A DNA stretch of 64,000 bases from Candidatus Freyarchaeum deiterrae (GTDB taxonomy: Archaea; Asgardarchaeota; Jordiarchaeia; Jordiarchaeales; Jordiarchaeaceae): positions 1,664,001 through 1,728,000 of the forward strand of contig CP147778.1 in NCBI GenBank assembly GCA_037305845.1, in the 5' to 3' direction. The notes beneath the pieces were generated by a model, which saw only the letters and a list, made by a program, of their open reading frames with translations, searched no databases and was not told the origin of the DNA. The position numbers and the translations under genes are program-made. Position 1 is the stretch's first letter. Each line of letters starts with the position of its first letter. Positions 23,418 to 61,443 of this stretch are shown here, piece after piece.

Positions 23418-24617
23418 TTGGCCGACACTTATTTTATTCTTGCGGCGGTTTTTATTTTTTGGATTATTTTATTTATTATAGCTAGGTATTTGCATCTAGA
23501 AAAATATGGTTTGGACGCATTCCCCGGCGTTTTAATGTATAGAACCAAGAGATTTAATAACATTATTTCGAGAATTGCCAAAAAATCCCCAAAAACCTGG
23601 AAAGCCATTGGGACTTTAGGGGTGGCATTAAGTTATGCTGCGCTCGGCTACGGTATTATTCTCTTTCTATCAAATTTAATTAACGCTTTTGTTCAACCAC
23701 AATTATCAGGTCCATTGGTACCAATAATCCCTGGAATTACCATAACTGGCATCTCAATAATCTACGTATTAATAGCTATTGCTATAACACTAATAACTCA
23801 CGAACTAGCACACGGAATAGCTGCCATTGCGGAAGGACTTCCCATAAAGTCAGCAGGCCTATTGCTTCTCATCATTATACCTGGTGGCTTCGTAGAATTA
23901 GATGAAAAAGCGATGAAAAAATCCTCTTCACGTTCTCGATTTAGAATATTTAGTGCCGGATCAGCAACTAATATTGCAACCGCCCTATTAGCGTTCTTGA
24001 TTGTCACCAACTTTGCGTTTGCTATATCCCCTTGGTACGGGCCTTCAATTGGTGCTTATGTTTATAATGTTGCTCCCTACTCTCCTGCAAACTTTAACAT
24101 CCCACCCTCTACAGTAATATATGCAGTAAATGGCACCCCAATAATTTCGGACTCCGGCCTCAGCTTATATCTCGCAAATGTTAAACCCTTTGAAACAATA
24201 GTATTAGACACCAGCATAGGTAGAATTACCCTAAATACAACCATCAACCTCCAAAATCCAACTCGTGGATATATTGGAATTTACACCCACCCATTTTATT
24301 TGCCATACCCTTCAGTATGGGGGCTAGGAATAAGCTTTCAAAACTACCTCTATTTCACATTATTTTGGATTTTTATTGTTACATTTAGCGTAGCCATGTT
24401 CAACATGCTTCCCATCTACGCCTTTGACGGAGATAAGCTGTTTGAAGAAGTGATAAGAAACATAGTGCCAAAAGAGAATAAACTAAAAATTGGGAAAAAA
24501 TCCTATTCGAAAAGAAAAATTTTAATTAATGTTGCACGTATAGTTGCAATCTCCCTGATTGTAGCTAATTTTATTTTCCCTCTGCTAGCTGTAGGCTATA
24601 CCCCCTTCCCCTTCTAG
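23418..24617 (+). CDS. Site-2 protease (M50) with PDZ-like insert
   Basis: HELAH, AG...N, NMLP...FDG; transmembrane helices. Confidence 0.92.
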   Translation: MADTYFILAAVFIFWIILFIIARYLHLEKYGLDAFPGVLMYRTKRFNNIISRIAKKSPKTWKAIGTLGVALSYAALGYGIILFLSNLINAFVQPQLSGPLVPIIPGITITGISIIYVLIAIAITLITHELAHGIAAIAEGLPIKSAGLLLLIIIPGGFVELDEKAMKKSSSRSRFRIFSAGSATNIATALLAFLIVTNFAFAISPWYGPSIGAYVYNVAPYSPANFNIPPSTVIYAVNGTPIISDSGLSLYLANVKPFETIVLDTSIGRITLNTTINLQNPTRGYIGIYTHPFYLPYPSVWGLGISFQNYLYFTLFWIFIVTFSVAMFNMLPIYAFDGDKLFEEVIRNIVPKENKLKIGKKSYSKRKILINVARIVAISLIVANFIFPLLAVGYTPFPF

Positions 24618-24649
24618 TTTACCCTCTTAAAATAGGAGGATAATATTTA

Positions 24650-25576
24650 TTGAACTCGTGCAAAAAATGCTCAAAAAACGCAGTGGTTTTCTTGCCCTAC
24701 TCAGGAGAAAAACTATGCCGTAAATGTTTTCTAAACTCTATTGAAAAAAGAGTTCAAAAAGAAATATCTCAATCTAAACTACTAAAAAGATCAGATAGTA
24801 TCGGAATTGCTTTATCCGGCGGAAAGGATAGCGTAACACTTTTACACATTTTGCATAAAATTGAAAGCGTTTTCCCTGAAAGCAAATTATCTATAATTCA
24901 TATCGATGAGGGCATATCTCAATACAGTGAAAAAAATCTAAAAGCAGTCAAGGAGAATGCCTCTGAATTAGATATACCCCTCATCAACGCTTCTTACAGA
25001 AAAATATACGGTAAAACACTCGACGAAATTATTAAACATGCTGAAAAAAGTGAGAATAAACGATTAGGCGCCTGTTCCTACTGTGGAGTGCTTAGACGAA
25101 AAGCTCTGAACAAAACCGCTTACGAAGCTAACGTAGATTGTATCGCTACCGCTCATAATCTAGATGACGAAACCCAAACAATAATCCTAAATCTTCTTAG
25201 AGGTGACCTAAACCGGCTTGTAAGAAACAATCCAACACCCAGAAAAATACACCCAAAACTAGTTCCACGTATAAAGCCTCTAAGGACGGTTCCAGAAAAA
25301 GAAACCACCCTATACGCATTCTACAAAAACTTGAAACACAATTCAAAACCATGCCCCTACGCAACCGAAGCATACCGAGATGATATACGCGTCTTCCTTA
25401 ACCAAATAGAAAGAAAAAGACCCGGCACAAAATACAGCATATTACGCCTTTATGACAAACTAAGCCCTCAAATCACAATTGACAAAAATTCAATTCAGGA
25501 ATGCGCAGTCTGCGGGGAGCCTTCCGTAGAAAAAACATGCAAATCATGCCAACTATTAGAAAAAATATCACCATAA
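24650..25576 (+). CDS. ncsA: tRNA 2-thiolation protein NcsA/Ctu1
   Basis: SGGKDS, CSYCGV.RR, TAHNLDD, CPY; terminal zinc fingers. Confidence 0.9.
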   Translation: MNSCKKCSKNAVVFLPYSGEKLCRKCFLNSIEKRVQKEISQSKLLKRSDSIGIALSGGKDSVTLLHILHKIESVFPESKLSIIHIDEGISQYSEKNLKAVKENASELDIPLINASYRKIYGKTLDEIIKHAEKSENKRLGACSYCGVLRRKALNKTAYEANVDCIATAHNLDDETQTIILNLLRGDLNRLVRNNPTPRKIHPKLVPRIKPLRTVPEKETTLYAFYKNLKHNSKPCPYATEAYRDDIRVFLNQIERKRPGTKYSILRLYDKLSPQITIDKNSIQECAVCGEPSVEKTCKSCQLLEKISP

Positions 25577-25627: not shown

Positions 25628-25995
25628 GGTGGCGAGTCCTGAAGCTCGACATCCCGCACTACCAGCGTATCTGACACCTATTCTCCAATCCGGGATTCTG
25701 GAAGCACCGAGCGTTCAGAGTTAGGTTGCTCCATCAGGGCGCCGACCTAAATTATGCCAGCGTTCTCCCGGGCCTAACCGGTTTCCCTAATGAAGGATAA
25801 ACATACTTTCCCTACGAAAAGCTGTTACCCACCGTCGATCCTCCAGTGCGGATTTTCACTGCCTCGGAGACAGACCGTTTTGGCAGATTGGATATGCCTC
25901 ACATCAGCTTTCGGCCCGCCATATAGAGGATTTGCGGTCGAGAGGAGAACCTCTCTCAGGCAACCCCTATTTGCCCGCCTAGACAAGCCACCACC
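25628..25995 (-). ncRNA. ffs: SRP (7S) RNA with a 32-nt BHB intron at 25733-25764
   Basis: Termini pair (GGTGGTG/CGCCACC); Alu loop-loop complementarity ATAGGGG/CCTCTAT; helix 6 GTAG loop; helix 8 GGTTAGGCCC...GGAGCAACC split by the insert. Confidence 0.93.
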
Positions 25996-34330: not shown

Positions 34331-34422
34331 GGGCGTATGGTCCAGTGGCTATGACACCGCGCTTACAACGCGGTAAATCCTTTTCAGGAGCCGAATCCGC
34401 GGTTCGAATCCGCGTACGCCCA
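34331..34422 (+). tRNA. tRNA-Val(TAC) with a 19-nt variable-loop intron at 34377-34395
   Basis: Acceptor GGGCGTA/TACGCCC; CCGCG-CTTACAA-CGCGG; BHB central helix CGGT/GCCG. Confidence 0.92.
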
Positions 34423-34611: not shown

Positions 34612-35012
34612 GGGGTGATGAGCAGAAGGACGGCTGCCGGTGCCTTTTGGTGCTGAGGAAATCCATCCATCATGTGGGGCTCGAGCATTGTAAAGTGCAG
34701 GCTGAGAAGTCTGGCAATGGAGCAGAAATCCTTTGAATTAAGGACTGTAAACGACACATCCTTCTGAATAATGACTATGATATGGAATAAGAACGTAAAA
34801 CCAATCTTTTGGTGTTCGTTCTACAATAAAACCGTTGAGGATTCAGAAGGAATTGTTGAAACGACCATCCTCGAGGATGCAAGTCCAAATAGGCTGCCGA
34901 TTATCCCCCCACAAGAGGCGGCGGGTAGGACGCTAAGCTGAATGCTGTCAAGAGATCTAATGGTAACATTGACCTCTGAACAGAAGGTGGATTACTCTCT
35001 GCACATCACCCC
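34612..35012 (+). ncRNA. rnpB: RNase P RNA with a 23-nt BHB intron at 34728-34750
   Basis: P1 GGGGTGATG/CATCACCCC; CR-I GAGGAAATCC; CR-V AACAGAAGGTGGAT; P6 GTGGGG/CCCCAC; TGAAACG. Confidence 0.94.
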
Positions 35013-40267: not shown

Positions 40268-40862
40268 TATTATCATTACCCCATAGAGTGTCCAAATGGT
40301 TGTGCAACATAACAATGAAATTGTCAATTGTGTAAGTATCTCTAAAAAACACTTCGTTATATCCTTGATTAGCTAGTTGATTCTCAATAAAATCTGGAAA
40401 CGGGTATTCAAGTGGTACAACAGAATTTACACTATCTCCAAACACTATTTCATCAATACTCTTTCCTTTTATAGAAGGGAAGATTACTTGACTCGCATTT
40501 ATATTTTTTAATGTTTCTATCGAATCGGTGATGTTTTCATAAATGTAAACCCCACGCTTAGACAAAGTACTTTTCTTTTTATTTAGTTCTTTTAATTCTA
40601 TCTGCGCTTTCATTAATAACATGGTAATAGACCTGGTATCCGGTCCTAAATATTTTAATTCAGAGCCAACTAACTTGAGCATGTAATTTTCATCTTTAAC
40701 TAAGATATACAATATTGTATCTCTTCTTATTCCGTGAGAAAGAAAAAAGGCGGCTCTTATACATGCGCTAAGCTTTGAGACCGTTTGATTGATAAACCCC
40801 AAGTTGAGTTGTTTTTGGGTAATTTGAGGGATACTGTTCAACAGAACGCTGAAAAACCTCAT
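40254..40862 (-). CDS. TrmY/DUF358-like SPOUT protein, divergent
   Basis: AFFLSHGIRRD and L.PD.RS; next to pus10; C-terminal knot looks degenerate. Confidence 0.65.
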   Translation of the reverse strand: MRFFSVLLNSIPQITQKQLNLGFINQTVSKLSACIRAAFFLSHGIRRDTILYILVKDENYMLKLVGSELKYLGPDTRSITMLLMKAQIELKELNKKKSTLSKRGVYIYENITDSIETLKNINASQVIFPSIKGKSIDEIVFGDSVNSVVPLEYPFPDFIENQLANQGYNEVFFRDTYTIDNFIVMLHNHLDTLWGNDNNGDN

Positions 40863-42229
40863 GCTAATTTTCCTTTCCATTTTCTCATCTGCTCTGGCGA
40901 TATACCTGGAGGAACCTGCATTCCGCGTTTTCCCCGCCTTTGCTTACCCATCATCTTAGCCATTTTTTTAGCCGCGAAATACTGATCAATCAACTCTTTA
41001 ACATCCCTCGGTTGGGTACCGGATCCTCTGGCAATTCGGATTATTCTAGAACGATCAATTACTTTAGGATCGACTTGTTCCTCATTGGTCATTGATTGTA
41101 GCATTACTTTCCAATATCTCATTTTGTCATCTGCGACATCTTTTAGATCGTTAGGAATTTTGGCGCCAATCCCTACCAAATCAAAAACTTTGCTTATAGG
41201 GCCCATCTTTTTAAGCTGTTCCATTTGCTCGTAAAAATCTTTTAGCGTAAACCGCCCGCTCAAAAATGTCAGAGCCGCGTTCTTATCTGTTTTTACCTCG
41301 GCTTCTCTAACTTTGTCTAATAAACTTTGTAAGTCCCCCATTCCAAGTAAAAGCCCGACGAAGCCTGTGGGATTAAAACTCTCGATGTCCTCGATCTTTT
41401 CACCAGTGCTTATGAATTTGATAGGGGCTCCTGTAGCTGCAACAGCTGAAAGAGCGCCTCCTCCTCGAGCGGATCCATCTAATTTTGTTACAATTATCGA
41501 CCCGATATTCGTCGCGGCTTTAAATGCTTGGGCTTGGCTGGTTGCTTGCTGTCCGAGGGTCCCGTCTATCACCAATATAATCTCCTGAGGAAGAATGGCT
41601 TTTGCTATGTCTTGCATTTCTTTCATTAATCCCTTTTCTTCCTTATGTCTTCCAGAAGTATCAACGATTATTGCCTCGCACTCTTCTTTCTGAAGTTTTG
41701 CGATTCCCCTTTTGGCTACATCAACACTATTTTTACTATTTTGTTCTCCATAAAATGGAACGTTTAACTCATTTATTAACTGGTAAAGCTGCTCATAAGC
41801 ACCGGGACGGAATGTATCTGCGCAAACTACACCCGTTTTGGTACCTCTTTTACTGAGATATCTCGCGAGTTTAGCAGTTGTTGTAGTTTTACCTGAACCC
41901 TGGATACCCACGAGCATGATAACGTTTGTCTTTCCCGGCTTTATTTCGAGAGGGTATGCTTTCCTTCCTAGAATGTTGGTTAGCTCATCATAAACAATTT
42001 TAACAATATGTTCTCTTCTGCTTATGCCGGGGGGTAATGTTTCGTCGAGAGCCTTTTTCTTAATATTCTCACTTATTTCAAAAACCAGTTCAACATTTAC
42101 GTCAGATGTTAGAAGTGCTCTCTGAAGCTCTTTGACCAATTCTTCGACAGCTTCTTTGTCTGCGACGTTTGAACGCAAAATCTTATTTATTGCGTTTCTC
42201 AAACCTTCGCCTAATTTCTCTAAGACCAT
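40859..42229 (-). CDS. srp54: Signal recognition particle protein SRP54
   Basis: GIQGSGKTTT, DTSGRH, TKLDG, M domain RIARGSG. Confidence 0.97.
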   Translation of the reverse strand: MVLEKLGEGLRNAINKILRSNVADKEAVEELVKELQRALLTSDVNVELVFEISENIKKKALDETLPPGISRREHIVKIVYDELTNILGRKAYPLEIKPGKTNVIMLVGIQGSGKTTTTAKLARYLSKRGTKTGVVCADTFRPGAYEQLYQLINELNVPFYGEQNSKNSVDVAKRGIAKLQKEECEAIIVDTSGRHKEEKGLMKEMQDIAKAILPQEIILVIDGTLGQQATSQAQAFKAATNIGSIIVTKLDGSARGGGALSAVAATGAPIKFISTGEKIEDIESFNPTGFVGLLLGMGDLQSLLDKVREAEVKTDKNAALTFLSGRFTLKDFYEQMEQLKKMGPISKVFDLVGIGAKIPNDLKDVADDKMRYWKVMLQSMTNEEQVDPKVIDRSRIIRIARGSGTQPRDVKELIDQYFAAKKMAKMMGKQRRGKRGMQVPPGISPEQMRKWKGKLA

Positions 42230-42586
42230 TAGAACCACGTTCCTACTTTAAACCGTGCTAATCAATCTTATTTCTTTTTATTCACACTCTTCAAAATATT
42301 AACATTTACGCAGGTAGAGCTAGTTTAGGTTTCGTTATAGACGTTTCGTTTTTAACATCTCTTTATAATTGAATCTAGTGCCAATTTTTAAGGTATATCT
42401 ACTAGGAGTCTACTCTTAGAAAATGTACAGATATATACTTAACTAGCAATATAAAAACTAAATTTATTTTAAATAACTAAAAACCTATCTTTATACTTTG
42501 ATTAATTGTAAATGAAAAACTTTTGAAATGCATTTTTAAAGTTTAAATCAAATGTTAGGGTATTCCTCTCTACGATGTGAAATGCG

Positions 42587-52275: not shown

Positions 52276-52417
52276 GCAGGGCTAGCTAAGTGGTTAACAG
52301 CGCCGGACTCAAGATCCAAAAAAGTAGCCTAGATGGTTAAGCCATCCGGTCCCGTAGGGGTACGGGAGTTCGAAAGAGGGTAAAATTAACCTTCCGATAT
52401 TCTCCCGCCCTGCACCA
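52276..52417 (+). tRNA. tRNA-Leu(CAA) with two introns: 52314-52343, 52375-52400
   Basis: Acceptor GCAGGGC/GCCCTGC, A73, CCA, long variable arm; 86 nt after intron removal. Confidence 0.9.
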
Positions 52418-61051: not shown

Positions 61052-61167
61052 GGGCCCTTAACTCAGCTGGTAGACCCTTAAAAAGCCTTTTAAGGAACGC
61101 CAGGAGTACCTGATTCGCATTCAGAAAATTCAGGAAGCCGCGAGTTCGAATCTCGCAGGGTCCACCA
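61052..61167 (+). tRNA. tRNA-Ala(CGC) with a 31-nt intron (61074-61104) and a 9-nt insert (61120-61128)
   Basis: Acceptor GGGCCCT/AGGGTCC with G3:U70; CCA; 76 nt after removal. Confidence 0.88.
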
Positions 61168-61312: not shown

Positions 61313-61443
61313 TGGTGGACCCAGTGGGAGACTCGCCGTTGAGAGTTACCTCAACCGATTCGAACCCACGGCCGACTGGCTGCAAACCAGTCGCTTTAAG
61401 CTTGCGCTTACTTAAGCGGAATCTACCGCTGAGCTATGGGCCC
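61313..61443 (-). tRNA. tRNA-Ala(TGC) with two introns: 61396-61422, 61330-61358
   Basis: Acceptor GGGCCCA/TGGGTCC with G3:U70; CCA; 75 nt after removal. Confidence 0.92.

Follow-up and report, generated by a model that had tools for sequence, protein, structure and literature searches.

A predicted BHB intron at the helix-8 tip of a linear SRP RNA gene in an Asgard archaeon

BHB-processed RNAs of archaea and the Freyarchaeum locus

Archaeal rRNA genes and the cbf5 pre-mRNA carry bulge-helix-bulge (BHB) introns that are spliced by proteins. Relaxed BHB introns at non-canonical positions of pre-tRNAs are abundant in Thermoproteales and in Freyarchaeia/Atabeyarchaeia, and introns are found in 92-95% of the tRNA genes in a genome set that includes Freyarchaeum (PMC11291895). 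A 2026 preprint on Asgard introns points out that relaxed BHB motifs easily arise by chance and that, for the new tRNA inserts it reports, splicing in the cell is still to be demonstrated. The closest described system is the permuted SRP RNA of Thermoproteus tenax, which is ligated at the helix-8 tip and carries a motif that EndA cuts in vitro (Plagens et al. 2015, eLife, PMC4731332). The cleaved substrate consists of a CGGG/CCCG helix with the bulges AGA and AAG, and the unligated 'open' RNA, for which a construct with 5' end GGAGCA and 3' end CCGGGAG was used, binds SRP19 and SRP54 poorly (PMC4731332). Plagens et al. suggested that the ancestral gene carried a simple BHB intron, but named no example (PMC4731332).

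The window analysed here, a stretch of 64,000 nt, comes from the complete genome (3,576,204 bp) of Freyarchaeum (Freya-1), a soil Asgard archaeon, and holds an SRP RNA gene with an insert in helix 8. A sequence-only reading of this stretch had proposed a linear, intron-containing SRP RNA. That proposal is supported by an excision test, by a site and a motif that are conserved, with covariation, across 20 distinct inserts, by the identity of the junction with that of T. tenax and by the enzymes encoded in the genome, and for these reasons we consider it highly likely that the locus is a linear SRP RNA gene with a BHB intron, the precursor of which would be cut by EndA and joined by RtcB.

The Freyarchaeum RNA is of the same type as the SRP RNAs of T. 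tenax and T. uzoniensis, and the predicted splice involves the same helix-8-tip phosphodiester bond (…CCGGGAG joined to GGAGCA…). The motifs are near-identical, with the central strand CGGG and the 5' bulge AGA in common, and the same enzymes are proposed. In contrast to the permuted Thermoproteus gene, the halves of the Freyarchaeum gene stand in normal order, an internal hairpin closes its motif in the place of leader and trailer, and its product should be linear, not circular. A permuted, circular SRP RNA of the Thermoproteus type was rejected for Freyarchaeum, as the gene is colinear with the Rfam model from position 1 to 317. Judged from its sequence, the gene has the form of the ancestor proposed by Plagens et al., and the idea that the Thermoproteus permutation started from a gene of this kind is compatible with the one bond that the intron site and the T. 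tenax ligation share. Alternatively, intron and permutation may both exploit an easily spliced site. The locus would supply the intermediate predicted by Plagens et al. (2015) at the very bond that is joined in Thermoproteus, so that a path leading from an intron to a permuted, circular gene can be tested.

With archaeal pre-tRNA BHB introns the insert shares its size, a 4-bp central helix, two 3-nt bulges, an inner hairpin and an unconserved interior, but its host is an SRP RNA and not a tRNA. Like the BHB introns of rRNA and cbf5 it resides in a non-tRNA host; it differs from them in the host RNA, in having neither an ORF nor a homing endonuclease, and in spanning Asgard and other archaeal groups, whereas those introns are known only from Crenarchaeota. 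The intron type and the enzymes are already known, and it is SRP RNA as the intron host that is new in the literature searched. The earlier statement that no intron-containing SRP RNA had been described holds there as well: none was found (subscription journals lay outside the coverage), Plagens et al. 2015 (PMC4731332) only predicted one, and SRP RNA is unmentioned both in the genome paper (PMC11291895) and in the 2026 preprint. If spliced as predicted, SRP RNA would join the few archaeal RNAs that are processed by the tRNA splicing machinery, EndA and RtcB would be needed for membrane-protein targeting in relatives of the eukaryotes, and the spread of introns in these Asgard genomes would reach past tRNAs. 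The insert would also provide a short, well-defined substrate for assays of Asgard EndA.

The SRP RNA gene and its 32-nt insert

The Rfam covariance model RF01857 (Archaea_SRP) matches the gene over its full length (model positions 1-317) with 103.6 bits against a cut-off of 96.5. This is the one match in the genome at E<=10, and the gene is thus single-copy; no DNA copy of the spliced form was found in the complete genome. The features of the locus are as follows.

25630..25990, minus strand: SRP RNA gene (Rfam RF01857 match), 361 nt unspliced and a predicted 329 nt spliced
25765..25990, minus strand: predicted 5' exon with the Alu domain, helices 5-6 and the 5' side of helix 8, ending in CCCGGGAG (sequence, Rfam alignment, excision test)
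25733..25764, minus strand: predicted BHB intron, 32 nt (motif, excision test, conservation across 20 inserts)
25630..25732, minus strand: predicted 3' exon, with first letters GGAGCAACC (sequence, Rfam alignment, excision test)
25767..25770, minus strand: exon strand of the central 4-bp helix, CGGG, pairing with 25735-25738
25735..25738, minus strand: intron strand of the central helix, CCTG, pairing with CGGG at 4/4 positions
25764..25766, minus strand: 5' bulge AG^A with the predicted cut at 25765/25764 (AGA in 19/20 inserts and in the T. tenax substrate)
25732..25734, minus strand: 3' bulge AT^G with the predicted cut at 25733/25732 (ANG in 20/20 inserts)
25740..25762, minus strand: inner hairpin of 7 bp (two G-U) with a 9-nt loop, -9.4 kcal/mol (folding)
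25812..25815, minus strand: intact helix-6 GNAR loop, GTAG (Rfam alignment), the partner of the helix-8 tip in SRP19 binding (PMC4731332)
26017..26034, minus strand: probable archaeal promoter, a purine-rich BRE-like run followed by TTTATA, about 27 nt 5' of the gene (by eye only)

The letters of the minus strand agree with the layout given in the sequence-only reading, namely a CGGG/CCTG helix flanked by the bulges AGA and ATG. The arms of the inner hairpin are CGCTGGC (25762-25756) and GTCGGCG (25746-25740). Two features were absent from that reading: an A-C mismatch (A25763 opposite C25739) below the inner hairpin and next to the 5' bulge, at a position that is G-C in kin, and an outer helix that has one standard pair, C25771-G25731, in the BHB register. 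The motif of the Freyarchaeum copy therewith fits a slightly relaxed class and not the strict hBHBh' form. Removal of the 32 nt from 25764 to 25733 yields GGCCC-GGGA-GGGAGCAACC, so that CCC-GGGA-GGG followed by AGCA is restored, which is the canonical helix 8 with a GNRA loop that had been claimed; this tip and the adjacent SRP54-binding loop are present only once 25733-25764 has been taken out. The predicted spliced junction reads CCCGGGAG joined to GGAGCA or, over an alternative span, TTAGGCCCGGGAG joined to GGAGCAACCTAAC. The search with the archaeal SRP model that had been suggested as a check likewise agrees, in that the Rfam alignment of 25630-25990 leaves the insert as an unmatched stretch within the helix-8 loop.

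For the excision test, 1000 possible excisions were scored against a profile of 19 intronless Asgard SRP RNAs. The excision predicted from the BHB motif ranked first of the 1000 with 159.8 bits, as compared to 156.6 for the next best and 140.2 for the unspliced sequence. When the insert was shuffled, a 4/4 central helix in register together with a 7-bp inner stem arose at a frequency of 7.5e-5, and the motif is for this reason not attributed to chance. Nor is the insert an assembly artefact, because an identical 361-nt gene is held by three other sequencing-run assemblies. Energy minimisation alone did not single out the motif (z about -0.1 to -1.2). In the energy model, other folds at -17.7 and -19.6 kcal/mol are favoured over the strict 3/3 BHB fold at -12.5 kcal/mol. 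A self-splicing group I/II or homing intron was ruled out, the insert being a single hairpin of 32 nt and the window being free of any such Rfam match. In sequence, the insert resembles no tRNA intron of the Freyarchaeum genome; a search of the genome for a tRNA-intron donor found none, with a best score at shuffle level.

Some further observations concern the gene and its surroundings. An extra hairpin in the Alu domain (about 25949-25965, minus strand) lies between helices 3 and 4 and is conserved with covariation in the class. The possibility that it is a second intron was rejected, since it covaries and since lineages that lack the helix-8 intron can have it too; it looks structural. Two ORFs of 70 aa overlap the SRP RNA gene and were taken as spurious; a look-up of one of them returned no record. 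The gene adjoins a TIGR00269 (TtuA-like) gene (region 23418-25576, plus strand), and the pair, often together with an M50 protease gene, forms a neighbourhood that is conserved in several distant genomes (L219, L138, L221 and L225).

Distribution and covariation of the insert

Within Jordarchaeia/Freyarchaeia, all nine SRP RNA genes found, which represent two families, have their insert at this one bond; a relative from the same genus as Freyarchaeum is deposited as Ca. Jordarchaeum madagascariense. The insert is likewise borne by 8/8 metagenome contigs with class-type flanks, in a scan that permitted the spliced form and returned only intron-bearing contigs, which, as DNA assemblies, are uninformative on splicing. 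Beyond the class, two more Asgard families have inserts at this bond: one, with a Baldrarchaeota record among its members, is represented by three genomes, and the other by two genomes, the exons of which cluster with those of a 1.4-Mb Asgard genome without the intron. Inserts also occur in four Thermoproteota-group genomes (deposited as Thermoprotei, Bathyarchaeota and Nezhaarchaeota) and in two small-genome (0.9-Mb) archaea that are taken to be DPANN-like. The remaining Asgard families examined have a plain helix-8 tip without insert. In a pattern scan of all GTDB contigs, the matches listed were mostly chance hits in GC-rich bacteria, with four SRP genes among them. The 14 insert-bearing Asgard genes were obtained in a family search free of motif constraints, while the search that first gave the inserts of G151 and G152 was constrained, in the case of G151 by a pattern with two fixed central bases.

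The 20 distinct inserts range from 15 to 39 nt and all sit at CGGR-AG^...^G-GAGCA; neither the sequence nor the length of their interior is conserved. Pooled over these inserts, 78/80 central-helix positions are paired, with switches between G-C and G-U and one double change from G-C to A-T (A-U) in which the exon has changed too, and so are 58/60 positions of the first three inner pairs (G-C, C-G, U-A, A-U and wobble), although such pooled counts overstate the case because kin among the inserts are not independent. The inner stem shows compensatory changes as well. For 19 of the inserts, central-helix pairing amounted to 74/76, as compared to 31 on average and 51 at most after shuffling.

In a tree of the spliced exons the intron label needs 5-7 changes, which is compatible with several gains, several losses or both, the tree being too weak to tell how many origins there were. 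Close relatives differ, as is the case for G011, which has no insert, beside G050 and G058. The patchy distribution would allow repeated gains at a favoured site. To a wider picture we give an even chance that all its parts hold jointly: that SRP introns are an undescribed recurring feature of archaea; that BHB introns have a hot spot in helix 8 with at least two sites; that the tip intron, while fixed in Jordarchaeia/Freyarchaeia, is scattered among other Asgard, Thermoproteota and small-genome lineages; that targeting depends on tRNA splicing; and that such a gene was ancestral to the circular SRP RNA of Thermoproteus.

Among the SRP RNA genes inspected, one on a contig deposited as Heimdallarchaeota (L029, G033:C1:41419-41762, plus strand) has a 31-nt insert with a strict BHB motif at a second helix-8 site (GGCC AG^T ... 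GGCT AA^G), and its removal restores the usual CCAGGCCAG joined to GCCCGGAAGGGAGCA. Two others (L015 and L018, from the 2.8-Mb single-contig genomes G031 and G021) combine a plain helix-8 tip with a long Alu-domain insert.

Splicing machinery, proposed processing and other readings

The genome encodes two EndA subunits, in the regions of C1:1921033 and C1:1733162. The closest solved chains to the catalytic subunit are 3p1z_B and 3ajv_B (E 8e-43), which we take to be the Aeropyrum pernix alpha2-beta2 enzyme, and the subunit has the extra loop and the catalytic Tyr/His/Lys. The loop of the A. pernix alpha2-beta2 endonuclease widens its substrate range. Genes for RtcB, SRP19 and SRP54 are also present, the last within the window.

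40859..42238, minus strand: intact SRP54 gene; the M domain has the usual RNA-binding motif (sequence comparison)

A tRNA-Val intron in the window (34377-34395) has the same layout as the SRP insert and an outer helix of 1 bp, so relaxed motifs appear to be normal in Freyarchaeum.

As we envisage it, the transcript would be a 361-nt linear precursor that has the BHB motif in place of the helix-8 tip. A heterotetrameric (alpha2-beta2 type) tRNA splicing endonuclease would cut after the second bulge base, at 25765/25764 and 25733/25732, and RtcB would ligate the two exons, as the motif and the processed T. tenax site suggest. Joining would shift the pairing register and create the CCC-GGGA-GGG tip beside the AGG/AGCA loop, which would be required by SRP19 and subsequently by SRP54. 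The mature product would be a normal linear SRP RNA of 329 nt, and the excised 32-nt intron would leave, probably as a small circle without a role. Within Jordarchaeia/Freyarchaeia the intron would have been inherited, with selection keeping only the splice geometry. Since the sole SRP RNA gene is interrupted by a tRNA-type intron, a working SRP particle very probably requires that the enzymes of tRNA splicing first cut and rejoin its RNA.

Two other fates of the insert were weighed against splicing. The insert might lengthen helix 8 by a hairpin that is tolerated and retained in the mature RNA while SRP54 binds the loops below. The SRP54-binding AGG/AGCA loop does sit below the insert and could still form, and the SRP RNAs of these lineages tolerate other added hairpins, such as the one in the Alu domain. 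A retained extension, however, would not have to keep two bulges and a 4-bp helix in the same register over lengths of 15-39 nt and offers no reason why excision should restore the tetraloop to the base; moreover, the tip of helix 8 makes contact with both helix 6 and SRP19 (PMC4731332) and the SRP54 of Freyarchaeum looks ordinary, so that we regard retention as very improbable. Even less probable, in our judgement, is a nicked two-piece RNA, which EndA would cut and whose exons would stay un- or partly ligated and be held by helix 5 and helix 8. Extensive pairing between the exons would indeed hold the pieces together after cutting, but the nicked ('open') T. tenax RNA is a poor ligand for SRP19 and SRP54, the natural RNA is ligated at the same bond, and RtcB is encoded in the genome.

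A function of the intron itself, be it as a guide RNA or as a switch that ties protein targeting to splicing capacity, would be an addition to splicing and not an alternative to it. Such a role would agree with the presence of the intron in every class member examined; it is nevertheless unlikely that the intron is anything other than a neutral passenger, given its unconserved interior and variable length, the close relatives without it and the fact that no box C motif was seen. A guide-RNA role was set aside as conserved boxes were lacking.

The RNase P RNA gene (34618-35006, plus strand) has three insertions of about 23, 40 and 26 nt relative to the Rfam model, in which no convincing BHB motif was found. 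The window contains four intron-bearing tRNA genes, Val 34331-34422, Leu 52276-52417 and Ala 61052-61167 on the plus strand and Ala 61313-61443 on the minus strand; ARAGORN recovers one of the four, and all are already included in PMC11291895. In a small-genome archaeon, an ORF with a LAGLIDADG-like motif (L087:132-950, minus strand) seemingly runs, by eye, into a tRNA-like 3' end and is possibly a tRNA intron that bears a homing endonuclease.
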